Shown in pieces: positions 14,623 to 26,374 of a stretch of DNA of 52,958 nt. The notes under the pieces are model-generated. The model did not search any database, was not told the DNA's origin, and saw nothing but the letters and a program-made list of their open reading frames with translations. Origin of the DNA: a virus (lineage: Duplodnaviria > Heunggongvirae > Uroviricota > Caudoviricetes); the IMG/VR virus record IMGVR_UViG_2541047912_000003; one strand, given 5' to 3'. The translations under genes were made by a program, and so were the position numbers. Each line of letters opens with the position of its first letter. Within the stretch, counting starts at the first letter, position 1.

Positions 14623-15412
14623 TTACGCCAGTTGTACAGACACGAACTCATCAGGGTCAGCCAGCAGCATCAGCGGTGCTGACTGAATCATGGTGAACTC
14701 ACGCGCCGGGTCGCCGGTGGTCACCCAGTTTTTCGGGTAACGGGCAGAGGCGTTAATGCCTTCGCGCTGTGCGTCCGCATCCTGAATGCAACCATAGGTG
14801 CGCAGACCGCGTGCCTGAGTGTTCCCCAGCACCATCGTGTTGTCCGGCAGGAAGTTCTTTTTGACGCCGTTTTCCACGTACTGTCCGGAATACACGACGA
14901 TGGCCACATCGCCATACATTCCCTTATAAGACACCGCTTTGCCCAGGTCTTTTACCGCTGTCTCCAGCTCGGAATGAGAGCCGCGACGGGTATCCAGCTT
15001 CTCCTTGACGGCTTTGAAGGAACGGAACAGCGCCCAGCCTTTCGGATCAAACACGATGATATTCACCACACCGCTGGCGTTCAGCGCGTAGGCTTCGATA
15101 TCGTCGGTCGGGTCATACGTGGACTTGTCACGCTTGCTCCACTCCGTGCCGCCGGACTGCGTGATGTTATTCGCCTCACTGCGGCCCATATCCACCTCAA
15201 CCGGATCGAAGGCTTCACCGGTCATGGTATATTTGCCCTTAAGCACGGCAGAAACTGCCTGCATCTCTTCGACCTGGGCAATCGCCAGATTTTCATCCAG
15301 CATATTCTGCCGAATAATACGGCGACGACGGTAAGCCGGGTCAGCCAGGTTCTGCGGATCTTCATCCGGCAGGCGACGCAGGGTCATCTGCGGATTCACC
15401 TCATGCTTGGGT
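14623..15412 (-). pseudogene. E: major capsid protein E, C-terminal ~260 codons, separated from its 5' part by a 10.7-kb insertion
   Basis: Translation PKHEVNPQMTLRRLPDEDPQ...FVSVQLA is collinear with lambda gpE from about residue 83 to the end; preceded in frame by a stop at the insertion junction. Confidence 0.9.
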
Positions 15413-15413
15413 T
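15404..15413. repeat. left copy of 10-bp direct repeat tgcttgggtt (putative att core, attL side)
   Basis: Identical 10-mer at 26130-26139; both lie exactly at the break in E. Confidence 0.7.
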
Positions 15414-15620
15414 ACATGAGTCAAATAGAAAAAAGATACTTGATTTAACAGAGATTTATTTTATAAATGAGAGGGTGCAGAATTACGTAGCAATACATGC
15501 TGCAATACATGGTTAGGGAAAAGCCTTCTTGGCATCGTACAAAAAACAAACCGAATTTTTTCTAACACAGCCAAGTAAAGCCTCCTTCACTTAATTAGTT
15601 AAATTATAAAGGAATATTCA

Positions 15621-16763
15621 ATGAAAATTTTTCTTGCTCATGCAAAAGAAGATGAAACGATAACTGAAGAAATCTATGAAAGGCTAAAAAGTGGAGGATA
15701 TTCCCCTTGGATGGATGTAAAAGATATACCCGCTGGCGTAAACTGGGATTATGAAATCCAAAAAAACTTCGCTAATTCAAACTTGATAATCCTTATCCTT
15801 AGCAAAGTGAGCACTCAGAAAAATGGTTATATTCGCCGCGAAATAAATGACGCCATTGATAAACTAAAGTATTACAAACCAGATGATGTGTTCGTGATAC
15901 CATTACTTATTGATGATTGCGAAGTACCCGCCTACATATCAAGCAAGCTCCAATTCATTGATTTTAAGAGAAATGATGGTTGGGACATTTTATCTAGATC
16001 TTTAAGATTAGCAGCATCGCAACAAAAACTTGAAATATCTCAAGGTATCACTTATGGGCCATTTAACTTTAGCAGCGAGGTTTTCAAGGAAGAATATAAC
16101 AAGATCCCAGGGCATGAAATTGAAATAGCATATCCAAGAATTGAAAGCCATACATTACCGAAATCAGCAAAACTCATTAGTGATTACTTTTCAGGAAAAG
16201 CGGCTTTACATATTTTTTCTGAACGCACATCACTATGGCCAGGAACACCATATTGGGATGAAGAATATAAACACACTTACACTAGTTCCTATAATGAAAG
16301 TTATAACATCTCATACTGTAACGAAAATGTTATGAGCATCCTTCATTCCGTACATTGGTATGGTGCGGGAGCAGCACACCCTAACAGTCATTTTGAAACT
16401 AGTAATTTCGTAATAACCAAGGATGACTACGCATACAAATTTAGTTTATGGGATGTATTTACCGAAGGGAAAGAGCAAGAAGCGATTAATAAGATAAAAC
16501 AAAAAATAATCTCTGAATCAGCTCGTGAATTTTGGGAGAAAACTGGTGAAAAACCAAGTGAGGACGACATTAGTACGTTTGCAACGGGTATCATGGATAG
16601 TAACTTAGACTCGTTCACAATAAATAGTGATGGATTTAGATTCCATTTTGCACCTTACGAAATTCATGCATATGCTTTTGGTTCTTGGGAATTCTTTATC
16701 TCATTCTTTGAAGTAATAGACTTCCTTAAAGAGGATGGAATTTACTCTCTAATAAGGAGTTAA
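15621..16763 (+). CDS. TIR-domain protein (380 aa) with ~250-aa C-terminal domain of unknown function; candidate defence/abortive-infection effector
   Basis: N-terminal ~120 aa (KIFLAHAKEDE, ILILSKVS, candidate catalytic Glu in RREINDA, VIPLLIDDCEVP) fit the bacterial TIR fold; AT-rich codon usage unlike flanking DNA; strong RBS aaggaa; C-terminal WYGAGAAHP motif loosely resembles the GGAH motif of DUF3298/RsiV-type domains (unverified). Confidence 0.7.
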   Translation: MKIFLAHAKEDETITEEIYERLKSGGYSPWMDVKDIPAGVNWDYEIQKNFANSNLIILILSKVSTQKNGYIRREINDAIDKLKYYKPDDVFVIPLLIDDCEVPAYISSKLQFIDFKRNDGWDILSRSLRLAASQQKLEISQGITYGPFNFSSEVFKEEYNKIPGHEIEIAYPRIESHTLPKSAKLISDYFSGKAALHIFSERTSLWPGTPYWDEEYKHTYTSSYNESYNISYCNENVMSILHSVHWYGAGAAHPNSHFETSNFVITKDDYAYKFSLWDVFTEGKEQEAINKIKQKIISESAREFWEKTGEKPSEDDISTFATGIMDSNLDSFTINSDGFRFHFAPYEIHAYAFGSWEFFISFFEVIDFLKEDGIYSLIRS

Positions 16764-17129
16764 CATTTCAATAAGCCTGAAATTTAATCAGGCTTATATA
16801 CATTTCCTTATGATTAAATTATTGCTGTTCTTAAGCAAAGATGCAGCCAGAAGTAATTCCCCCTCAAGCTTGCTTGCACACATAAAGAACTGACACAAAA
16901 CTCTGCTGTAAAGTTGTCTAGCCACACAGCAAAAAACATATGAAACTTTGTTATTCGCAAACTGCTTGCTCTATATTCCACCATCAAGGCGCATAAAGCA
17001 ATTGCAATGGCGCAGAAGTAGGCCATAACTATGAAGTGAAGCTAGCGGCGCGTTATTGGCCGCTTCTGAATAGGGCCTGATTCAACTCAGGGATAAGATT
17101 TTTTCTGGTGATAGACCGCGACGGATGGC

Positions 17130-17330
17130 AACAAAACCAGAGAAAGGAAACGACAGAGGCCAAAAAGCCTGTTTTTAGCACCTGTCGTTTCCTTTCTTTT
17201 TAGGGGGTGTTTTTAATAAAAACATTAAGTTACGGCGAAGAAGAACGGAAACGCCTTAAACAGGAAAATTTTCACAAATAGCAAAAAACTGCGCGCCTGA
17301 CGCCCCGTAGCCTGTCAGATCGCCGGAAAG
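17130..17330. other. satellite cos site (cosQ-cosN-cosB-like), paralogous to the prophage cos
   Basis: About 200 bp roughly 90% identical to 32340-32540 (aggaaacgacag, cacctgtcgtttcctttc, ttacggcgaagaagaacggaaacgcc blocks) in the same orientation; cosN-equivalent 12-mer at 17295-17306 (gcctgacgcccc) differs from the prophage's. Confidence 0.75.
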
Positions 17331-17361
17331 GACCCGCCAGCCAGAGCGGGCCCTAATTTCA

Positions 17362-17745
17362 TCAACCAATCAGCTTATAGCGACCATCCCGTGCATTGCG
17401 GCGTACACGCTCAATCTTGAGGCATAGCGCCGCATCTGGCTTTTTTGGGACAGGTACGCGGCAATATTCAGAAGCGCGAGGAATATTATTTATCCAGTCG
17501 ATCACTTCACTTAAATACCAGGCCTTACGCCCTTCCGTAACCTGCACACGCTCCGGGAACTCTCCACTAGCCTCAAGGTTTAGCAGTGTACGCCGACTCA
17601 GGGTTGTAATTTCCATCACCTGATTCATATCAACAAGGCGCTCGCTTAAACACATTTTGTCAGCGATAGCTTTTAATTCCTCTACAGCTGGATTCGGGTA
17701 CATCATTTCGGCAAGTGGCTTAAGGTCATTGTAATCATTCTGCAT
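17362..17745 (-). CDS. HTH protein (127 aa; AlpA/MerR-like winged helix), adjacent to satellite cos; possible packaging-redirection or regulatory protein
   Basis: C-terminal half (EITTLSRRTLLNLEASGEFPERVQVTEGRKAWYLSEVIDWI) resembles AlpA-type HTH and the Nu1 DNA-binding fold; strong RBS; last gene of the capsid operon next to cos. Confidence 0.5.
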   Translation of the reverse strand: MQNDYNDLKPLAEMMYPNPAVEELKAIADKMCLSERLVDMNQVMEITTLSRRTLLNLEASGEFPERVQVTEGRKAWYLSEVIDWINNIPRASEYCRVPVPKKPDAALCLKIERVRRNARDGRYKLIG

Positions 17746-17756
17746 TGTATCCCCCT

Positions 17757-18098
17757 TTACACACGAGCCAGCGGCTGAACAGAAATACCTGAGCCAACAA
17801 ACGCTGCAATCTTTACTGACAGTTCTTTTACAGACTCAGGCCAGTTCAGAGCATCAACATTTAAGACACCTGTCTTATAGACCTGAGCCTGTGTTTTTTT
17901 CGCGGTGTCGATTTGTACAGCGGAAACATAAACCGCTTTACCTACGCTCGAACCATCCCATACCACCAGTGCACCTGTTGCATCTTCCTGCATCAGTGGC
18001 GTAAATGCAGGAATTACCCCTTTATTAGCTGAAAATATCCCCAGCGTAGTCACCAGTGCTTCAGTGCCAGCCATGAGTTCAGTGTAATGAGTAGCCAT
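17757..18098 (-). CDS. head decoration protein (lambda D paralogue) encoded by the satellite
   Basis: 113 aa; shares the PLM...VVWDG...YKTG...WPE pattern with lambda gpD (26430-26762) but is divergent; strong RBS. Confidence 0.7.
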   Translation of the reverse strand: MATHYTELMAGTEALVTTLGIFSANKGVIPAFTPLMQEDATGALVVWDGSSVGKAVYVSAVQIDTAKKTQAQVYKTGVLNVDALNWPESVKELSVKIAAFVGSGISVQPLARV

Positions 18099-18107
18099 TG
18101 CTCCCCC

Positions 18108-19148
18108 TTAGCCAATGCGAACGGTAACAAAACGATTGATGCGGGCCGGTATTGGCTGTGGTGCTGAATGTGTCTGCACATATTCAATAGCCGGATCACC
18201 AGGCACAATATAGTTTTTCGGTGCAAGTTCGGCTTTAGTCAGCCCCATTCGGATTAGCTCCGGATCCTGAATACCGCCATAGGCGACAATCCCCTGAAGA
18301 GCCGTATTGCCAAGCACCATCAAATCAGGATCAAGGAAATGTTTTTCAGTTCCGTCCTCGTCGGTATAACGCCCGCTGTATACAACAATCGCAACATCGC
18401 CCATATACCCTTTAAAACTCACCGAATCACCAAGGTCTTTAAGGGCCGTTTCCAGTTCGGAATTAGAACCACGACGGGTATCCAGAGCCTCTTTTATCGC
18501 TCTGAATGAACGGTATTTCTTCCATACATTACCGCCCATAATGATGATATTAGTGACGCCCTCACTAAATTCTGCGTAGCTCTCAATATCATCATTTGGA
18601 TCAAAAGTTTCTTTATCCTTACCTGACCACTCAGTACCGCCAGACTGAGTGATGATATTTTGTGGTTTTATATTCCAGTCCAGCTCATAACGTTCAATAC
18701 CATCGCCCTCAATGATATTTTTCCCCGTTGTGATTGCCTGAACGGCAAGCCATTCAATACGTGCACGAATAGCTTTAGCCTGATTTACAATCGCCTGTTT
18801 AACTTTAATATTACGCGCTCCAAAAGCATTGTATTGCTCAGGTGATACACCAGCAGGGCGCACAGCTAACTTATTTGGATCAATGCTGCTTTTCGGCTTC
18901 ATATAGCCTGGACGAATTGTTTTTGATTCGTACCCTTCGTCACGTGAAACTTTACTACCTACCATAGGAGAACAAAACGCTGCAATTGGGATATTTGGAT
19001 CGTCGATTGTATCAAGAATAATATCGCGCGATTCAAACATTACCGAACGAGTAAAAAACAAACTGGTAAACAACGCATTTAGTTGTTTTTGTACATCTAC
19101 AGCATTAACCACCTGTACAAGCTGGGTAGGCGAATATAAATCAACCAT
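18108..19148 (-). CDS. major capsid protein (lambda E paralogue) encoded by the satellite
   Basis: C-terminal two thirds about 50% identical to lambda gpE (ITQSGGTEWS, DTRRGSNSELETA, YMGDVAIVVYSG); likely start at MVDLYSPTQ with AGAGGA RBS; the supplied ORF is extended upstream. Confidence 0.8.
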   Translation of the reverse strand: MVDLYSPTQLVQVVNAVDVQKQLNALFTSLFFTRSVMFESRDIILDTIDDPNIPIAAFCSPMVGSKVSRDEGYESKTIRPGYMKPKSSIDPNKLAVRPAGVSPEQYNAFGARNIKVKQAIVNQAKAIRARIEWLAVQAITTGKNIIEGDGIERYELDWNIKPQNIITQSGGTEWSGKDKETFDPNDDIESYAEFSEGVTNIIIMGGNVWKKYRSFRAIKEALDTRRGSNSELETALKDLGDSVSFKGYMGDVAIVVYSGRYTDEDGTEKHFLDPDLMVLGNTALQGIVAYGGIQDPELIRMGLTKAELAPKNYIVPGDPAIEYVQTHSAPQPIPARINRFVTVRIG

Positions 19149-19365
19149 ACGCATCCTCTTTGCATTCATTAAAAATAATTGTGGATATATGCTATCACCG
19201 ATATTTGTCATGCGAATACATGCAACCGAGTGCAATGTTGTATAAAGTTTTGGGATAACAACTCCAGCGCGGATAATTAGTGTTAATATCTTCACTCCCT
19301 TTGGTCGGGATTTATGTAGCATGCCGGAAAATTTATTTTTTTCCGGCCTTTTTTATTGGCAATAT

Positions 19366-19815
19366 TTAAAACGGAATATCATCTCCCCATTGCTCATTAT
19401 CTCCCACTGGTGGATGGCTTCCTTGCTGATCTGCCTGTTGTTTTGCTCTGTTCAGTGCGTCAGTAGCCTGACCCTGTTGACCTTTTTTGCCGCCCGGTCG
19501 CACCGTTCGCGCACTGATTACGCTGTCTGCGATAACCTGCCAGCCCTGCCGCGTTTCACCGTTCTGTCCAGTCCACTGGCTCACCTGCATATTACCCGCC
19601 ACGCTCAGGAGTTCGCCTTTGTGATGCTTTGCCAGCGCGTCGGCTTGTCTGCCAAACGCCAGGACAGATAACCACATCGTCGCCTGACCGTCATCCGACT
19701 GACTGCAGGGCAGTGATACCGCCATACGCGCCAGCGTCATGGGGGTGCCCTTGCTGGTCTGTTTTGTCTGCGGGTCGTCCACCAACCGCCCGTAAACTGA
19801 TATTTGCGCCGTCAT
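19366..19815 (-). CDS. ssb: single-stranded DNA-binding protein
   Basis: 149 aa, OB-fold-like N-terminus, Gly/Gln-rich linker and C-terminal acidic tip DDIPF; RBS present. Confidence 0.85.
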   Translation of the reverse strand: MTAQISVYGRLVDDPQTKQTSKGTPMTLARMAVSLPCSQSDDGQATMWLSVLAFGRQADALAKHHKGELLSVAGNMQVSQWTGQNGETRQGWQVIADSVISARTVRPGGKKGQQGQATDALNRAKQQADQQGSHPPVGDNEQWGDDIPF

Positions 19816-20057
19816 GCTGCCTGCTCTCCGGACTTAATATTGATTGTTGTCACTTCCTCCGCTTCAGCAATCTCCCGTTCGGTCAGAGTGGCAAAGTTTG
19901 CAGCCGCCGTTGTCATGAATGCGCTAATCAGTTCGGGATGTGCTTTCGCGTATCCTTCCCCGGCGTTGCGGTCGATGATTTTTATCGACACCCTTAACCA
20001 GTGTTCCGTCAAATCAAGGGCGTGCGATTGTGATTTTTTTGTGTGCTTCGCTGTCAT
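19812..20057 (-). CDS. hypothetical protein (81 aa), translationally coupled to ssb
   Basis: Stop overlaps the ssb start (ATGA); immediately downstream of the iteron region. Confidence 0.5.
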   Translation of the reverse strand: MTAKHTKKSQSHALDLTEHWLRVSIKIIDRNAGEGYAKAHPELISAFMTTAAANFATLTEREIAEAEEVTTINIKSGEQAA

Positions 20058-20099
20058 AGGCTTTATCTCACAGCAGTAAATTAAAATTTTTGCGTTTTA

Positions 20100-20335
20100 A
20101 CCCTTCACCTGTTCACCTTTTGATATTTTCTCTTTTAATTCATAATGTTAATGGGTGAACAGTTTCACAAAAACTATTCACCAACTGTTCACCACTGTTC
20201 ACCCTTGAAGCTCAATAAACAATCAAAAAGGTGAACAGTGAATAGTTTGGTGAACAGTTCATAAATAACTGTTCACCCTATAATATACTGATATAAAAGA
20301 TATTTATGACAGGGTGAACAGTGGTGAACAGTTAT
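20100..20335. repeat. iteron cluster (about 10 copies of TGTTCACC / GGTGAACAG in both orientations); putative satellite replication origin
   Basis: Motif recurs throughout 20103-20330 in an AT-rich context, immediately downstream of the primase-helicase gene. Confidence 0.75.
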
Positions 20336-20344
20336 TCCATAAGT

Positions 20345-22165
20345 TTAATTTTTGCTATCGTCATTAGTGACCGATACACATGATGGCATCCAGTCTTCTG
20401 ATTCCTCCGTCAGGGTCACGTTTGAACGCAAACCGTGCTTCGTTTTCCGTTTCATATACTCCCTGCCATATTCCGCCATTGCCCCCGGCATATCTTTACC
20501 GAAGCGCGTCAGTGTTACAGGTTTACCAAACCCATGTGCCCTCATATAAGCCAGATAGGCATGATAGAGATACCTGCGTGGGCTGAATGGCACAATTTCA
20601 GCATTACCCACTAACAGGCCATCACACATTACCGATGCCATGAGATAACCGCAGAAGTCCACCAGCGAATCCCCCTCTCGCTTTATCGCCAGTGCTTCTT
20701 CAGATTTCTGCTGCTCATATAACAGGCGTCTGGCTTCGTCCTGATCAGCAAACCTTGTAAGCAGATGACGAATCACTACCGCCAGCTCACCTTCTATTTT
20801 TTCCGCCAGCATCGAATCGCGTTCGTTCTCCGGTACAACTTCCGAAAAATTGAATATCACCCGACGACGTGAGATCCCCCCGCTGCGGTCACTGAATGAC
20901 ATGGCGTTATTGTTAACCGCCAGCACTACTGCCGGAATACGCGTTGAATAGGGGGCTTTGTGTTTCGGGTCAATTGCCACCTTGTCACCGCCTGTAATGG
21001 CCTTAATCCCTGCCCCATCACCAGCGTAGCGGGTCATATCCGGCATGATAATCAGCGAAAAGCCAACCACTAACGCACGTTCCCTTGCATCTTCCAGCGC
21101 CTTCATGCTTGCTGATACTGTATTAGCCTTACCCGCCAGCATGGTGCAAATCTCCGCCATCACACTTTTACCACTTCCCCCCGGCCCTGTTACCTCAATG
21201 AATAACTGCCAGTCGTACCGGTTCGCCAGCACCATGAATAATGCCGCCAGTACGCGATCTGCCTTGCGGTCATTCTCAGCCACCGAACGGCGCAACCACT
21301 TCCAGAAATTCGGCGCATGTGTTGCCAGCGTTTCCCCCTCTGCTGGTGGGCTGAAAGGTAATTCACTGGCAATTAACAACCAGTCGTTTTTGTTATGCTC
21401 CCGAAAATTACCAGTTCTGGTATCAAATACCCCGTTACTGAATCCAATCAGGTTACGGGCTGTATTCCCCATTACAGGCAAACTTAACTTCATGGTATCT
21501 ACCGCCGATTTAATAGCGTTCTGCGAATAGCTGATCTCCGCATCAATGAAAATCTGCGCCATAGCACGCTGTAACTCTTTATCCTGAACCGGCTCCCATA
21601 CAACGCCGTTGTAATGATGAACGGTGTCAGAGTCGGCATTGATTGCCAGTTCGCCGCCGTAATGTGCAAGGAGAACTTCACCGCGCTGGCTGGCCCCCAT
21701 CTGATTCAACGCCAAAGATGAAGCACGCTCGTCATTTTTGCGCTCAGCCTTCTTCACTGGCAGTTCAATCACCAGACTTTCCCCATGCTCCGCTTCAGCT
21801 TTTAGGCCGACAAGGCGCGGAGTCCAGTCTTCAGGCTCTCGATCAACAAAGCTACGGTAACAACGTGCTTCCTTTACGCCTGCAATAGCAAGTAATGTCG
21901 CAACCTTCGTCAGATTTTTCTCTGCAATCTTTCCGGCACGATAAACACGCACATAATGACGGCCTTCATCGATAATTTGCATATCATCCAGGTTTTCCAG
22001 TTGTTCCGTACCCAGAATTACTGGTGGTGTATCATCTGCTGCAATATGCTTACCCGCCCATTCATTCCATTCTTTTGCATGGCTCCAGGCATCACTGCCA
22101 GCAAAAATGATGACTTCTGTCATTTTGTCGCGCGGTTGGTATTTTAAGTTCGGAGCACGTTTCAT
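20345..22165 (-). CDS. replication primase-helicase (P4/PICI-type, P-loop NTPase)
   Basis: 606 aa with Walker A GPGGSGKS and downstream Walker B-like hydrophobic-acidic stretch; GGAGG RBS; adjacent iteron origin. Confidence 0.8.
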   Translation of the reverse strand: MKRAPNLKYQPRDKMTEVIIFAGSDAWSHAKEWNEWAGKHIAADDTPPVILGTEQLENLDDMQIIDEGRHYVRVYRAGKIAEKNLTKVATLLAIAGVKEARCYRSFVDREPEDWTPRLVGLKAEAEHGESLVIELPVKKAERKNDERASSLALNQMGASQRGEVLLAHYGGELAINADSDTVHHYNGVVWEPVQDKELQRAMAQIFIDAEISYSQNAIKSAVDTMKLSLPVMGNTARNLIGFSNGVFDTRTGNFREHNKNDWLLIASELPFSPPAEGETLATHAPNFWKWLRRSVAENDRKADRVLAALFMVLANRYDWQLFIEVTGPGGSGKSVMAEICTMLAGKANTVSASMKALEDARERALVVGFSLIIMPDMTRYAGDGAGIKAITGGDKVAIDPKHKAPYSTRIPAVVLAVNNNAMSFSDRSGGISRRRVIFNFSEVVPENERDSMLAEKIEGELAVVIRHLLTRFADQDEARRLLYEQQKSEEALAIKREGDSLVDFCGYLMASVMCDGLLVGNAEIVPFSPRRYLYHAYLAYMRAHGFGKPVTLTRFGKDMPGAMAEYGREYMKRKTKHGLRSNVTLTEESEDWMPSCVSVTNDDSKN

Positions 22166-22449
22166 TTATTACCTCCGGCAACTAACATTGCCCGAATTTT
22201 GCGGATATAGCCTGCGGCACGCCTCTGATTATCTGTCTTGCAATTTTTTACCAGAATGAAATCTCTTTCGAACTGCTGACGCGGCATAACACATTCAAAA
22301 TCATAACCATCACGCAAATAAGAGACACGGCGATCATCAACCGAAATAATCTTTACCCGATAGCCATAGCTATCTTTGAAAATATCCCCAAGGCTGATTT
22401 TTGAATGAGCTTGACCGCTGGCAATAAAGCCAGAAAATTTATTTTTCAT
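22162..22449 (-). CDS. hypothetical protein (95 aa) in the satellite replication operon
   Basis: RBS GGAGAA; stop overlaps the primase start. Confidence 0.5.
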   Translation of the reverse strand: MKNKFSGFIASGQAHSKISLGDIFKDSYGYRVKIISVDDRRVSYLRDGYDFECVMPRQQFERDFILVKNCKTDNQRRAAGYIRKIRAMLVAGGNK

Positions 22450-22451
22450 TT

Positions 22452-22676
22452 TTATTCTCCGGTATAGCTCTGGTCGTGTATTTTTATAGCTTCATCCAGC
22501 TCTTTGATGACAGGATCAAGTAACGTAATTAACGCTCCAGCTAAATTAGCATCCCGTTCATCGTGTTCCGCATTTGTTGTCCCATCAAGCCAGGTTGATA
22601 AGATTTCTCGCATATTTTTGCCACAAACGAGCGCGTTTTCAGCATGTGTCAGCACTTTAAAATAAAGATCATTCAT
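22452..22676 (-). CDS. hypothetical protein (74 aa) in the satellite replication operon
   Basis: RBS GGAGG 7 nt upstream; tightly packed with neighbours. Confidence 0.5.
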   Translation of the reverse strand: MNDLYFKVLTHAENALVCGKNMREILSTWLDGTTNAEHDERDANLAGALITLLDPVIKELDEAIKIHDQSYTGE

Positions 22677-23034
22677 GGCACACCTCCTGACGAATACGGG
22701 CGGCGAATATCATCACGCAGCCAGTTGGGGATTGCTGGCGGGCTTCCTGTTCGCTGGTGGCCTCGATGGTAATCACGCGCGGTTGTGTCGTACTCAGGGC
22801 GATAAAACGCCAGAGGAAATTGTTTTCACATTTCTGAATAAACAGCGTGTTTTCTTCCCGCCCTTTCCAGAAAGCCGCAGTATAGCCCATCTCCTTAACC
22901 ATCTTGCGGGCATCAACCAGCGTGTCAGCGGCTACATGTACCGTAGTTGCTCCATCTGCTATGCGATCGCGATGTAGCGCCAGAAAGATGTATATAAATT
23001 TAGGGTGAGTTTGGGTATGCTGTGTTCCAGCCAT
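22669..23034 (-). CDS. hypothetical protein (121 aa), first gene of the minus-strand satellite operon
   Basis: Internal Met of the 304-aa supplied ORF with GAGG RBS; the upstream extension is Ser/Arg-rich and overlaps a convincing plus-strand gene. Confidence 0.5.
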   Translation of the reverse strand: MAGTQHTQTHPKFIYIFLALHRDRIADGATTVHVAADTLVDARKMVKEMGYTAAFWKGREENTLFIQKCENNFLWRFIALSTTQPRVITIEATSEQEARQQSPTGCVMIFAARIRQEVCHE

Positions 23035-23039
23035 AATCG

Positions 23040-23240
23040 TTACCTCGTTTAACGGTTTGGTTAGAAGCCCGGTTAGTGTTCGCGCACTGCCGGGTTTCGT
23101 CGTTTTTATGAATCGATCATTGTGAGATACATAGCGACCATAATGTGAGATATACATTATATTGTGGTGATATACATTGCAAGTGTTTTTATATCTCACT
23201 TTTGTGTATAGTGATATACACATAACAAATTGGTGATTAA
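23040..23240. promoter_or_regulatory. divergent promoter/operator region of the satellite with repeated TGAGATA(T)ACAT-like motifs
   Basis: Several copies of gtgagatacat / gtgagatatacat / gtgatatacat between divergent genes at 23034 (minus) and 23243 (plus). Confidence 0.5.
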
Positions 23241-23242
23241 CT

Positions 23243-23545
23243 ATGTCTGTATACAAAAATGCAAAATCGCAAATGACAACGATCAGGGTTCCCCACGATG
23301 TTATGGAGGGCATGGAATCCGTAAAACTGGACGGCGAAAGCAACGCCGGATTCATAGTAACCGCCATGCGCGGTGAGATCGCCCGCCGCCAGGCAGAAGG
23401 AAGCGGAGAAAATCCCCTCGTGTCTTCACTGGATGCCTTAGCTAAGGTCGAACAAATCGGCATCAAGGCAGCGGAGGAAATCGGGCAACTCGTAGCCGTC
23501 GCTCGTGAAGAACTCCAGCGGCGTAAAGCCAAAGAATCTGAATAA
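23243..23545 (+). CDS. hypothetical regulator (100 aa), divergently transcribed from the satellite replication operon
   Basis: Charged, helix-rich protein adjacent to the operator repeats; position expected for a satellite repressor; no family recognised. Confidence 0.5.
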   Translation: MSVYKNAKSQMTTIRVPHDVMEGMESVKLDGESNAGFIVTAMRGEIARRQAEGSGENPLVSSLDALAKVEQIGIKAAEEIGQLVAVAREELQRRKAKESE

Positions 23546-23895
23546 TTAGTATCAGCGCCGTGATGTGAGTAACTACGGCGCATTGCTATGTAAATACTGG
23601 CAATAAACAGAAAAGGTAGTTCTACTCCGAATAATTTTATCTGACACTACTCCTAAACTAACATGCGCTTATCTTACAGGATATAAATATAAATCCATAA
23701 AATCACGATTAAATAAAGTCGCTCCAAATATAAACCACACCCAACGCTTAACAAGATAGCAACAAACAGATAAATAACTTGCAGAAATATTTATCGCAAG
23801 GATTATCATTATTAATGACAAATCACTTTACCAAGTCATTCCCCTCTCTTATCATAAAGAGAAAGTAATAAATAAGTTAAGGGAGTTAGAATGCT

Positions 23896-24432
23896 ATGAA
23901 TCTAAAAAAAATAGCCACAAACACAAAAAACAAGATAACAGAAACATTCAATAAACTTATATTAGAGGCATCTAAAACCCCCACACAAGATGAAATTAAA
24001 ATACTTGAGAGAAGGAGTAAGAAGTTTAATTACTCCTTTTTCTCATACGCAGTCACAGGAGCTATAATAGTTTTTTGCTCTCAACCATTAATAAAATACG
24101 CAAACCCAATACTTATTTTATTGAGTGGCCTGCTATTGTCTCTCACCATTATCCACCTCAGAATTCTTTATATTTCACAAACAAATAGATCATGGACAAA
24201 AAATAAAAAAACTGCATATATTATTTTAATTTTATCTGTATGTTTCCTAGCGTCAACATTGACGTTGCTATATCAGGCTTACGATAATAACATCACACAC
24301 AAATTGTACTGTAAAAATATACAACAACTTATTGAAAAAAGGATAGAAACAGAAAAAAACATCAGCATATTCAGTGGAATGCAATGCACCCCGGTATATG
24401 ATTACTCTTTATTTGGATTTAATCTCTTATAA
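23896..24432 (+). CDS. AT-rich integral membrane protein (178 aa, about 3-4 TM segments); cargo gene of the satellite
   Basis: Hydrophobic segments (AVTGAIIVFCSQPLI, ILILLSGLLLSLTIIHL, AYIILILSVCFLASTLTLL); very AT-rich relative to neighbours. Confidence 0.55.
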   Translation: MNLKKIATNTKNKITETFNKLILEASKTPTQDEIKILERRSKKFNYSFFSYAVTGAIIVFCSQPLIKYANPILILLSGLLLSLTIIHLRILYISQTNRSWTKNKKTAYIILILSVCFLASTLTLLYQAYDNNITHKLYCKNIQQLIEKRIETEKNISIFSGMQCTPVYDYSLFGFNLL

Positions 24433-24440
24433 AGAATGTT

Positions 24441-24476
24441 ATTACTGATTTGAGTACAAATTCTCAAATCAGTAAT
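24441..24476. terminator. perfect 14-bp inverted repeat hairpin between convergent genes (likely bidirectional terminator)
   Basis: attactgatttgag / ctcaaatcagtaat arms with 8-nt loop, followed by a T-rich tract. Confidence 0.6.
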
Positions 24477-24501
24477 TCATAATATTTTATTCTGAGATAA
24501 T

Positions 24502-24738
24502 TTAAACTACCCACTCACCTCGAATCCATGCCTGCACTTCTGAAAGACGATATGCAACAGCAGTGGAACCAATCTTGATCCGCTTAGGAAATTTTCCTTC
24601 CTTCTCCAGCTTCCAGCGTGTGCTGTTCGCAAGAGTGGTTAGCTCCCGACATTCTTTCTCACGGATCATTCGGTCAATGTTAGGAATGTACTCCAGACCC
24701 TTTTTATCAACAATTGCCATTTTTTTCATGTTAACCAA
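24502..24738 (-). CDS. alpA: AlpA-family excisionase/transcriptional regulator
   Basis: 78 aa, HTH (ELTTLANSTRWKLEKEGKFPKRIKIGSTAVAYRLSEVQAWI) typical of AlpA/Xis; immediately downstream of int. Confidence 0.8.
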   Translation of the reverse strand: MVNMKKMAIVDKKGLEYIPNIDRMIREKECRELTTLANSTRWKLEKEGKFPKRIKIGSTAVAYRLSEVQAWIRGEWVV

Positions 24739-25966
24739 CCTTTTGTTTGAGGATCGTCACTTTTGAATCAGCACCTGCGATGCTATTGAGATATGTAGTC
24801 CAGAGTTCCAGAGCATCCAGTTTTTTAGCCATAAACTTACTCCGGTTGTAAACACCTGCCACGCCAGGTAGCGCATGGCCTAACAGTTGTTCTACTACAT
24901 AAAATTCAACACCGAGATCACTTAGATGAGTAGATAGCGTTCTTCTAAGGTCGTGTAGTGACCATTGTTTTTCATGGCCCAAACGTTTACCGATTTTCCC
25001 CCCAATCTTGCTTACGCTTTCTCTAATTCGCAGACTTCCCAGCACATAACCAGTATGTTTTGTCTCTTCGTGAACATCCGTTACCCACTGTCGTAGAATT
25101 TCAGGTACTGGTCTGACGATTTCAACACCAGTTTTTGAGTGATCTTTTGGTACAGTCCAAACCCAACTTTCGAGATCCCATTCGCTCCATTCTGATAATC
25201 GGGCTTCACTCATTCGACATCCAAATACTGTACAAAGCACAAACATTTTTCGCGTGTATTCAGACATTAGTTTTAAATCAGGCTCGACAAAAATTGCCTT
25301 CCAGAGCTGGCCGAGTTCGGCTTCATCCAGAACCCGATCCCGCTTACCTGCAATCTGCCCCACATCACTCATGCGCAAATCCTTTAAAGCATCACACGTC
25401 GCGTACTGGCGTACCCGACAAAAACGAAGAGCTAATTTAGTGTCAGAAAAAACATACGCCGCCATAACTGGTGCATTACGTTTAATTCGGTCAAAACAGT
25501 CCAGCCATTCATATAGGTGAGTGTCATTTACGGGCAAATGACCGATATAGGGAAAGATATGCTTTCGAAATCTGCCAAGCGTTACAGCATGAGTTTTACG
25601 ACGCACCTTACAGTAATTTTCATACCAGTAATTTAGTGCATCCTCCACTGTGACCGGCTTTAAGCGTTCTTCAGCCTGAATCTTAATCTGGATACGCGGA
25701 TCACGTTTGTCAGCCAACCAACCACGGCACTCGTCGCGCTTTTCCCTTGCCTGTTTGAGTGACATATCAGGATATTTACCCAACGTTAGCCAGACCGGAG
25801 CAGCCCGGCCACCTGCTAACCTGTAGAAGAAAACAAAGCTCACAGCCCCTTTAGTACTCACACGAATAGAAAGCCCCTTTCCATCAGCAATGGTGATCTG
25901 CTTTTCTCTGGGTTTCCCCAGATATCCTTTAAGCGCTTTGTCGCTCAGTTTGTTCTCGCCAGCCAT
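24731..25966 (-). CDS. int: tyrosine integrase (P4-type) of the satellite
   Basis: N-terminal arm-binding region, catalytic region with HDLRRT and HxLGH-like (LLGHA) motifs and terminal Tyr (VYNRSKF); start taken at MAGENKLSD. Confidence 0.85.
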   Translation of the reverse strand: MAGENKLSDKALKGYLGKPREKQITIADGKGLSIRVSTKGAVSFVFFYRLAGGRAAPVWLTLGKYPDMSLKQAREKRDECRGWLADKRDPRIQIKIQAEERLKPVTVEDALNYWYENYCKVRRKTHAVTLGRFRKHIFPYIGHLPVNDTHLYEWLDCFDRIKRNAPVMAAYVFSDTKLALRFCRVRQYATCDALKDLRMSDVGQIAGKRDRVLDEAELGQLWKAIFVEPDLKLMSEYTRKMFVLCTVFGCRMSEARLSEWSEWDLESWVWTVPKDHSKTGVEIVRPVPEILRQWVTDVHEETKHTGYVLGSLRIRESVSKIGGKIGKRLGHEKQWSLHDLRRTLSTHLSDLGVEFYVVEQLLGHALPGVAGVYNRSKFMAKKLDALELWTTYLNSIAGADSKVTILKQKVG

Positions 25967-26098
25967 TTTTAGCCCCAAAAAGCAATACAAGCTGCAATAC
26001 AGAGATGATTGCAACACACAGATAACGAGGAAAATTCAGTGAAAGCGCCAGATAAATTTATTCTTTATTATCAAAAGATTAAGTGTAAAAACCAGCAA

Positions 26099-26374
26099 CT
26101 ACACGAAAGCCTCAGAAAGCCATGCTAAGTGCTTGGGTTTGACATAACCCGGCGTAAATTCAGAGGTGGAGCCGCCACGGGATCGGATAACCTCACCGGA
26201 AACAATCGGCGAAACGTACAGCGCCATGTTTACCAGTCCCGGAATTTGTGAGAGATAGACTTTTTCCGTGGTGAAAGGATAGGTTTCACGGAAAAACAGG
26301 CGCAGAAACAGCGGATCGAACTTAAAGTGATGCTGGGTCGATGCCAGTAATTCTGCAGTTGTATATACAGACAT
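26099..26374 (-). pseudogene. E: major capsid protein E, N-terminal 82 codons, fused in frame to 9 codons of satellite DNA
   Basis: MSVYTTAELLASTQHHFKFDPLFLRLFFRETYPFTTEKVYLSQIPGLVNMALYVSPIVSGEVIRSRGGSTSEFTPGYVKPKH matches the lambda gpE N-terminus, then diverges (LAWLSEAFV, stop) at the junction. Confidence 0.9.
26130..26139. repeat. right copy of 10-bp direct repeat tgcttgggtt (putative att core, attR side)
   Basis: Identical to 15404-15413; encodes the PKH codons present at both E fragment ends. Confidence 0.7.

Follow-up and report, generated by a model that had tools for sequence, protein, structure and literature searches.

Comparison of alleles and homologues shows here that ORF178, a 178-codon open reading frame (ORF) in the Caudoviricetes record IMGVR_UViG_2541047912_000003 of IMG/VR, is a real gene under purifying selection and more than a chance AT-rich frame. 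The window, by which we mean the whole stretch of 52,958 nucleotides that was analyzed, contains a lambdoid prophage whose capsid gene is interrupted by a satellite, and alignment with sister elements gives good support to the view that ORF178 is a cargo gene of that satellite. Three results are new. Family alignments led to the recognition of an orphan protein family with a conserved domain that carries a cysteine pair and is predicted to be periplasmic; synteny shows the slot next to alpA in capE-type helper-embedded phage-inducible chromosomal islands (HE-PICIs) to be a hotspot of gene replacement; and, of the slot genes counted, ORF178 is the most frequent. The function that we favor, with a probability of about 40%, is that of a stand-alone SieA-like inner-membrane exclusion factor. 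A preliminary description of this DNA had suggested superinfection exclusion or abortive infection, a role that we likewise infer from position and architecture.

As that description had proposed, a 178-aa protein is encoded at 23896-24432; the frame, on the + strand, opens with ATG. An alternative ATG at 23891 is not kept among the alleles (it is ATA in L026 and L030), whereas the ATG at 23896 is invariant. ORF178 DNA was found in 67 of 5426 complete Escherichia coli genomes and is annotated as a coding sequence (CDS) in 60 of the 60 listed among these carriers. Alleles fall into two classes, with 22 genomes at >=99% identity and 45 at 90-95%. Between the classes, dN/dS is 0-0.25 in codons 1-80 and 121-178, and dN is approximately 0 in the C-terminal domain. 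Together with homologues that share invariant residues, the annotation and the low dN/dS outside codons 81-120 are the reasons for regarding ORF178 as a real gene. Codons 81-120 form a hypervariable cassette (dS 0.46, dN 0.40, omega 0.87-1.0). Nucleotide alignment of the two classes revealed a compensated -1/+1 frameshift around codons 102-112, where the same DNA is read in different frames, and both classes keep a basic loop followed by a hydrophobic helix despite the frameshifted stretch. Judging from this alignment, only the general character of the cassette matters, i.e., a basic loop and then a hydrophobic helix.

The assignment of ORF178 to the satellite's cargo, also proposed earlier, follows from the limits of similarity to related elements. 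Alignments with sister elements L002, L003, and L004 (92.6-99.9% identity) end at 23070-23105 and resume at 24505-24511, and the more distant Kosakonia element (L006, 79-81%) has the same breakpoints. The segment from 23106 to 24504 is the only part that differs between elements that are otherwise 93-99.9% identical. In L002, the slot holds a diverged YlcI/YnfO gene and a putAbiC protein (PF16872, 2.8e-16); in L003, a TIR protein of the CAP12/Pycsar-effector type (PF10137, 1.2e-33); and in L004, a 305-aa protein of no known family. When slot genes were counted separately in the 5426 genomes, ORF178 was the commonest of those counted (67 genomes, followed by 37 for the TIR gene, 11 for putAbiC, and 6 for the 305-aa gene), and the int/alpA genes of this satellite were present in 176. 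Because the AT-rich leader of ORF178 and the hairpin behind it lie inside the replaceable segment, the gene travels as a self-contained module. A weak 79-bp match in L004 (3653-3729), AT-rich and 73% identical to the ORF178 3' end plus hairpin, hints that ORF178 was an earlier occupant of that slot.

Composition and local signals are those of a cargo gene or "moron": occupancy is variable, GC content is 0.30 against 0.46, and the gene has a promoter-like site, a Shine-Dalgarno sequence, and a hairpin of its own, these last being consensus matches only. ORF178 indeed occupies the most AT-rich part of the element, with a GC content of 0.303 over 23580-24480 and 0.302 over the ORF itself, the lowest-GC stretch of the satellite, compared with 0.464 for the satellite once both cargo genes are set aside and 0.492 over the window. 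Its placement between the regulatory region and alpA/int was also correct, since the divergent regulatory region with the ylcI-like gene lies on one side and alpA/int on the other. The gene had further been described as bracketed by a perfect 14-bp inverted-repeat terminator. The perfect repeat exists, but both of its arms (24441-24454 and 24463-24476) lie 3' of the ORF178 stop codon and before alpA, whose stop is at 24502; ORF178 is therefore followed by the repeat, not bracketed by it. This is the sole inverted repeat of >=10 bp (within 60 bp) in 23500-24800. As RNA, the hairpin forms a 22-bp stem at -20.9 kcal/mol (z = -5.5), and none of 200 shuffled sequences folded as well.

Database searches placed ORF178 in an orphan family that is shown here to be confined to mobile elements and islands. 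A HMMER search of 1.84 billion representative proteins returned a family of 8 clusters, to which a profile search of 5.8 billion sequences added a few further members. No homologue was found in 50,697 phage genomes, and a plasmid search gave one weak match, on a Pantoea plasmid. For ORF178, Pfam returned nothing above threshold, only sub-threshold matches of the membrane-composition kind; NCBIfam gave a single far-sub-threshold match (12.9 bits; cutoff, 300); PDB sequences, searched with a profile, yielded no match at E <= 10; a Foldseek search of the structural model described below against BFVD gave nothing at E <= 0.001; and a literature search on RefSeq accession WP_001049530 found nothing. 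Membership in the SLATT/2TM-effector family was considered and rejected. DUF4231 (15.6 bits; cutoff, 24.7) and Saf_2TM (14.1 bits; cutoff, 29.5) matched below threshold, in 3 and 2 of 15 sequences scanned, four of the 15 being near-identical E. coli alleles, and these matches look compositional. In addition, no CD-NTase, SMODS, SAVED, or TIR gene was adjacent in the contexts examined; the satellite's TIR gene is some 7 kb distant, at the opposite end of the element.

The preliminary description's "three or four" hydrophobic helices can be narrowed to three: ORF178 is a small protein with multiple transmembrane (TM) helices, and no fourth was detected. Kyte-Doolittle windows give hydrophobic segments at about 47-66, 71-94, and 106-128, and an alignment-based AlphaFold2 model with a mean predicted local distance difference test (pLDDT) of 83 has helices at 3-26, 31-61, 63-68, 71-94, 100-147, and 152-161, of which the three long membrane helices (31-61, 71-94, and 100-147) agree with the hydropathy. 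The protein is predicted to be a three-pass inner-membrane protein with its N terminus in the cytoplasm and its C terminus in the periplasm (N-in/C-out). Across 15 members, the N-terminal region is net basic in most, the loop between TM2 and TM3 (95-105, predicted cytoplasmic) is basic without acidic residues, and the C-terminal domain is near neutral. Among full-length family members, the N-terminal region ranges from 13 to 49 aa.

Conservation in the family is strongest in the loop at 63-71 and at residues 135-165. The first patch, QPLxK(Y/F)ANP between TM1 and TM2, reads QPLIKYANP in ORF178 and is predicted to be periplasmic; P71 and G78 are invariant or nearly so in the family alignments. 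The second patch, HDxYCxxxQ...EKNSxIFxxMQCR, is in the C-terminal domain and includes the invariant residues C139, Q143, F159, and C164. Homologues from other genera and from metagenomes, at 22-37% identity, share all five invariant residues (P71, C139, Q143, F159, and C164), and cysteines in the C-terminal domain number exactly two in 14 of 15 members and three in allele P0004. The cytoplasmic loop and the start of TM3, in turn, vary freely and tolerate frameshifted replacement. Under the predicted topology, both conserved patches and the cysteine pair would be periplasmic, where a disulfide can form, and a C139-C164 bond probably staples the C-terminal domain.

In the reading that we favor, in which expression, topology, disulfide, and anti-phage function are all inferred, ORF178 would be a horizontally acquired, self-contained moron in the slot next to alpA/int of an HE-PICI of the 11capE type, transcribed from its own promoter and opposite to late transcription of satellite and helper. 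Its product would reside in the inner membrane with a basic helical N terminus in the cytoplasm, and with the QPLxKYANP loop and a C-terminal domain of about 50 residues in the periplasm. With this periplasm-facing surface, the protein would hinder incoming phages from delivering their genomes, perhaps through contact with an ejection or tape-measure protein or with an entry factor of the inner membrane, and the outcome would be protection of the cell that carries the prophage-satellite composite, i.e., superinfection exclusion as for P22 SieA. We favor exclusion because constraint falls on the predicted periplasmic face whereas the cytoplasmic loop is replaceable, because the gene is solitary, and because its size and three-TM architecture parallel those of P22 SieA. 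Conservation on the predicted periplasmic face thus leans towards exclusion at the envelope over a cytoplasm-sensing abortive system, as an argument and not as a test. A broader proposal, possible yet on the doubtful side, is that ORF178 founds an undescribed stand-alone anti-phage family of three-pass inner-membrane proteins, in which the disulfide-stapled periplasmic domain and the QPLxKYANP loop would either recognize or obstruct the apparatus that delivers phage genomes and so protect the composite, with possible recruitment in Pseudomonas, e.g., as a partner of a type XI retron.

Several observations weigh against an exclusion role. No sequence or profile similarity to a known exclusion or defense protein was found, including no match for ORF178 in PADLOC or PHROGs, and homology to P22 SieA was rejected (hhalign of family alignment A2 matched 28 columns of TM helix, with a probability of 0.7% and an E value of 0.076). 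The topology on which the argument turns is predicted from hydropathy and the positive-inside rule. Where a sister element has a known defense gene in place of ORF178, that gene is of the abortive-infection or effector type and not of the exclusion type; therefore, guilt by position fits an abortive-infection role at least as well. DNA of 30% GC is commonly silenced by H-NS in E. coli, so that constitutive expression of ORF178 is not assured. Finally, ORF178 has an A8 homopolymer at 23904-23911 (codons 3-6), and in one genome (L005, NZ_CM142689, 3644-4181) nine A's produce a +1 frameshift and there is no annotated CDS. This copy could reflect real decay, a homopolymer sequencing error, or slippage-based on/off switching.

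Those occupants of the slot, and a single adjacency to a retron, favor abortive infection. ORF178 could be a membrane effector that is inert until a phage cue and then permeabilizes or depolarizes the membrane, killing the cell before phage release; the identifiable alternatives in the slot, putAbiC (with one N-terminal TM helix) and the CAP12/Pycsar-effector-type TIR protein, are of this kind. Its K/R-rich helical cytoplasmic N terminus could act as a sensor or gate, and only 49 bp separate one distant homologue, P0015, from the type XI retron reverse transcriptase (RT)-protease upstream of it, whose membrane effector it could be. We nevertheless consider this role unlikely. The most conserved parts are predicted to face the periplasm, the cytoplasmic loop is replaceable, and the N terminus varies between 13 and 49 aa; the 2TM-effector matches are sub-threshold and limited to the few sequences noted above; homology to putAbiC was rejected (no Pfam match; hhalign probability, 0.1%); and retron adjacency is one of some eight contexts outside E. 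coli, with type XI retrons classed by PADLOC as single-gene systems. Alternatively, the gene may serve the life cycle of the satellite or helper, by timing helper lysis, by interfering at the membrane with the helper or a competing prophage, or by excluding only the same satellite or helper. Long residence in the element lineage is suggested by its rank as the commonest counted occupant (67 genomes, against 176 with int/alpA) and by the occurrence of a homologue in the same slot in Kosakonia, and the two allele classes are old. In the four-zone PICI layout (PMC10111431), the position of the slot is that of the dynamic "Bro zone", which comes after the integration genes. ORF178 is dispensable, however, given that sister elements with 93-99.9% identical flanks carry unrelated genes instead; its transcription runs against that of the late genes of satellite and helper; and family members also occur outside satellites. 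Class I holins are about 100 aa long, have three TM helices in the N-out/C-in orientation with a basic C-terminal tail in the cytoplasm, and are encoded beside an endolysin in a lysis cassette. At 178 aa, with a predicted N-in/C-out topology, ylcI and alpA as neighbors, and no endolysin or other lysis gene adjacent, ORF178 does not resemble a holin, and a life-cycle role is on balance rather improbable.

Immunity to pore-forming colicins is conferred by small inner-membrane proteins that have three or four TM helices, and ORF178 might likewise be fitness cargo, an orphan protein that gives immunity to a toxin acting on the envelope, e.g., a pore-forming bacteriocin or an effector delivered to the periplasm by contact-dependent or type VI secretion systems (T6SS). 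A conserved disulfide-type domain in the predicted periplasmic position could bind a periplasmic toxin, and, among the homologues, that in L033 has a pyocin S locus nearby, that in L007 comes just after a T6SS cluster, and that in L055 adjoins Imm42. We give little credence to this proposal, as Pfam and NCBIfam gave no match to an immunity family for colicins, pyocins, or polymorphic toxins, no cognate toxin gene was adjacent in any context, and the L033 pyocin is of the nuclease type with a small immunity gene of its own. Furthermore, the TM helices, which carry the specificity of immunity proteins to pore formers, are the least conserved part of the ORF178 family. Equally hard to credit is a conserved but phenotypically silent or decaying passenger that plays no measurable part in interactions with phages. 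H-NS probably silences such AT-rich DNA, the L005 copy is frameshifted, and the family is tiny and patchy; set against these points are purifying selection on two thirds of the protein, CDS annotation in all listed carriers from two allele classes and many hosts, motifs conserved across genera, and an invariant promoter and Shine-Dalgarno region.

The genomic settings of relatives fit the single-gene function that the exclusion reading supposes, in that no neighbor recurs across the contexts examined, and family members appear to be stand-alone genes carried by mobile elements and islands. In Kosakonia sp. S29 (L006), a 35%-identical homologue occupies the same slot of a related HE-PICI, between an icd-like gene and alpA. 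This element too lies inside a capsid gene, and its int and alpA are 86% and 92% identical to those of the window; the cargo is therefore far more diverged than the core. A second ORF in that slot (L006, 10510-11121, -), 203 aa long with one N-terminal TM helix, lies convergently between the ORF178 homologue and alpA; it could be assigned to no family and resembles neither putAbiC nor the genes next to other family members. A shared partner was rejected, as neighbors differ from one context to the next and the ORFs that lie convergently downstream in Kosakonia and L034 show no relation to one another or to putAbiC. The Pantoea homologue adjoins an HNH gene and a primase fragment; the Brenneria homologue has an alpA-like ORF 0.5 kb away and an integrase-like ORF about 6 kb away; and in metagenome locus L055 the homologue lies beside an integrase fragment, Imm42, and umuDC. 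Pseudomonas homologues occupy variable, defense-island-like contexts, one of them (L033) near pyocin S and AAA_21 genes, and the homologue in L007 lies just past the T6SS cluster. In Pseudomonas mandelii AZQQ01000096 (L032, 6303-8447), P0015 (148 aa) is on the same strand as the retron RT-protease (PADLOC, 1.4e-174) that precedes it, in an island where Fic and DUF4238 genes lie on either side. A general role as type XI retron accessory or effector was rejected, since this adjacency occurs once and not in the E. coli, Kosakonia, Pantoea, Brenneria, other Pseudomonas, or metagenome contexts. It is conceivable from this one case that the L032 homologue is an unrecognized membrane partner of its retron.

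The features of ORF178, its slot, and the surrounding satellite are collected in Table 1.

Table 1. Coordinates, in the window, of ORF178, its protein regions, and neighboring features
Feature	Position	Strand	Basis or remark
ORF178 CDS (178 aa + stop)	23896..24432	+	ATG at 23896; TAA ends at 24432
Residues 1-46, K/R-rich helical N-terminal region, predicted cytoplasmic	23896..24033	+	11 positive and 5 negative charges
Membrane core	24034..24279	+	TM1 ~47-66; loop 63-71; TM2 71-94; loop 95-105; TM3 106-128
Residues 129-178, conserved C-terminal domain, predicted periplasmic	24280..24429	+	Alignments A1 and A2
Hypervariable cassette, codons 81-120	24136..24255	+	Separates the two E. coli allele classes
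Replaceable module (hotspot): ylcI-like gene, AT-rich leader, ORF178, hairpin	23106..24504	.	
Conserved AT-rich leader, 350 bp, 5' of ORF178	23546..23895	+	Column identity mean 98%, five alleles
Sigma-70-like promoter candidate, TTTACC, 17-nt spacer, TATCAT	23827..23855	+	Consensus scan, 9/12 matches
Shine-Dalgarno sequence, AGGGAG	23880..23885	+	10 nt to ATG 23896; read from sequence
Perfect 14-bp inverted repeat, 8-nt loop; terminator-like hairpin	24441..24476	either strand	Between convergent ORF178 and alpA
icd-like gene	22669-23034	-	
YlcI/YnfO-family gene, 100 aa, first of rightward unit	23243..23545	+	NCBIfam YlcI_YnfO_N 8.5e-20; PHROG 6522 1.7e-61; RefSeq annotation
alpA-family regulator/excisionase, conserved right border of hotspot	24502..24738	-	PHROG 2790 5.3e-18; RefSeq annotations
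Satellite tyrosine integrase, targets prophage capsid gene E	24731..26017	-	
Capsid gene E, C-terminal fragment	14623-15399		Flanks satellite
Capsid gene E, N-terminal fragment	26099-26374		Flanks satellite

Across the five alleles compared, column identity in the leader exceeds that of the middle of ORF178, and the promoter candidate, a consensus match only, is unchanged in all five. A weak hairpin (23555-23581, -17 kcal/mol, z = -2.0) follows ylcI at the start of the leader. A very hydrophobic minus-strand ORF of 50 codons with a TTG start (23669-23821) also lies inside the leader. It was rejected as coding and is probably not a gene, because most changes between alleles are non-synonymous and its codon 2 is a stop in one of them. 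An Rfam scan of 22600-24800 gave only one sub-threshold match, to the SymR antitoxin RNA and outside ORF178 (23029-23101, +; 35.3 bits, E = 2e-4; gathering score, 61). Located within the divergent regulatory region, it directly precedes the icd-like gene in antisense orientation and could be a regulatory antisense RNA or a chance match.

The satellite spans about 10.7 kb, from a TIR gene at 15621 to the integrase end at 26017, and has inserted into the lambda-like major capsid gene E of the prophage, in the orientation of that gene, and splits it; the two capsid gene fragments flank 15400-26050. It carries int, alpA, the icd-like gene, a primase, SSB, and capsid and decoration genes of its own. 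From this layout, the element is an HE-PICI of the published type Eco567.11capE, whose integration has been described, with E. coli NRG857c as the type strain (Mageeney et al. 2023, PMC10111431). NRG857c has ORF178 at 99.3% identity. In the published account, the non-hypothetical genes are all oriented as the interrupted capsid gene, and the opposite-strand hypothetical genes, ORF178 included, are left uncharacterized (PMC10111431). ORF178 and the ylcI-like gene run opposite to the satellite operon and the helper late genes, and other cargoes are accompanied by shorter, diverged versions of YlcI/YnfO. That paper makes no mention of cargo, membrane, TIR, or abortive, and we did not find the slot described there as a defense hotspot.

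The satellite's other AT-rich cargo gene lies at its far end (15621-16763, +) and encodes a 380-aa protein with TIR_2 and DUF3298 domains (Pfam, 2.8e-21 and 1e-10, respectively), to which the PADLOC Aga_TIR-PNTD1-PNTD2 models match at 1.6e-17 over the TIR domain only. This gene is absent from some sister elements, e.g., L012, L013, and L028. The copy of the satellite in E. coli IAI39 (L001, 13152-15726) is a rearranged composite, with an integrase interrupted by an IS3-family element and a right junction replaced by a fragment of another integrase beside tRNA-Arg. Its primase is annotated as a pseudogene with an internal stop, and that of the window is intact.

Were ORF178 to confer phage resistance, it would add a new family to the few characterized inner-membrane exclusion factors, and its conserved periplasmic domain would offer a handle on phage DNA passage across the inner membrane. 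The alpA-proximal slot of HE-PICIs would then be established as a defense hotspot, which could be mined cheaply for new systems because several of its occupants are unannotated. ORF178 is carried by about 1% of complete E. coli genomes, among them those of avian pathogens and clinical strains. In practical terms the stakes are modest, and the gene could matter for host range in phage therapy.

The satellite type, cargo and defense hotspots in satellites, and small membrane exclusion proteins as a kind are already known, and ORF178 is best viewed as an ordinary, plausible anti-phage candidate among them. To Eco567.11capE, the element is likened by its capsid-gene-E-targeting integrase, alpA, primase, and own capsid and decoration genes. 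PICI-encoded immune systems have been reported in the literature. The slot itself resembles satellite defense hotspots, such as those of P4-like satellites (Rousset et al. 2022, PMC9122126), in its fixed position in syntenic elements and in its alternative cargoes, which include anti-phage genes (putAbiC and TIR) as well as unknowns; it differs in belonging to an HE-PICI, in lying between alpA and the divergent regulatory region, and in that the swapped unit includes a YlcI/YnfO-family gene. With putAbiC (PF16872), ORF178 shares slot and orientation in sister satellites, and both are small membrane-anchored proteins. They differ in build, with a single N-terminal TM helix plus a soluble domain in putAbiC, and three TM helices plus a small cysteine-pair domain in ORF178. 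The product of another self-contained moron in a lambdoid context, HK97 gp15, is a small inner-membrane exclusion protein that reportedly blocks DNA entry at the inner membrane; it is much smaller than ORF178 and has a single predicted TM helix. The closest parallel is P22 SieA, which has 162/164 aa, lacks a signal peptide, exists as very divergent sequence types (A-C), and, with three predicted TM helices in the inner membrane, alone blocks DNA injection (PMC10883804). Like SieA, ORF178 is a single gene on a mobile element, of similar size (178 aa) and with three predicted TM helices. In contrast, the SieA motif FxRYPxEAxxFNK is C-terminal, predicted to be cytoplasmic, and lacking from ORF178, whose conserved C-terminal domain is predicted to be periplasmic and holds the cysteine pair; and ORF178, with no homologue in the phage genomes searched, is carried by a satellite and not by a phage.

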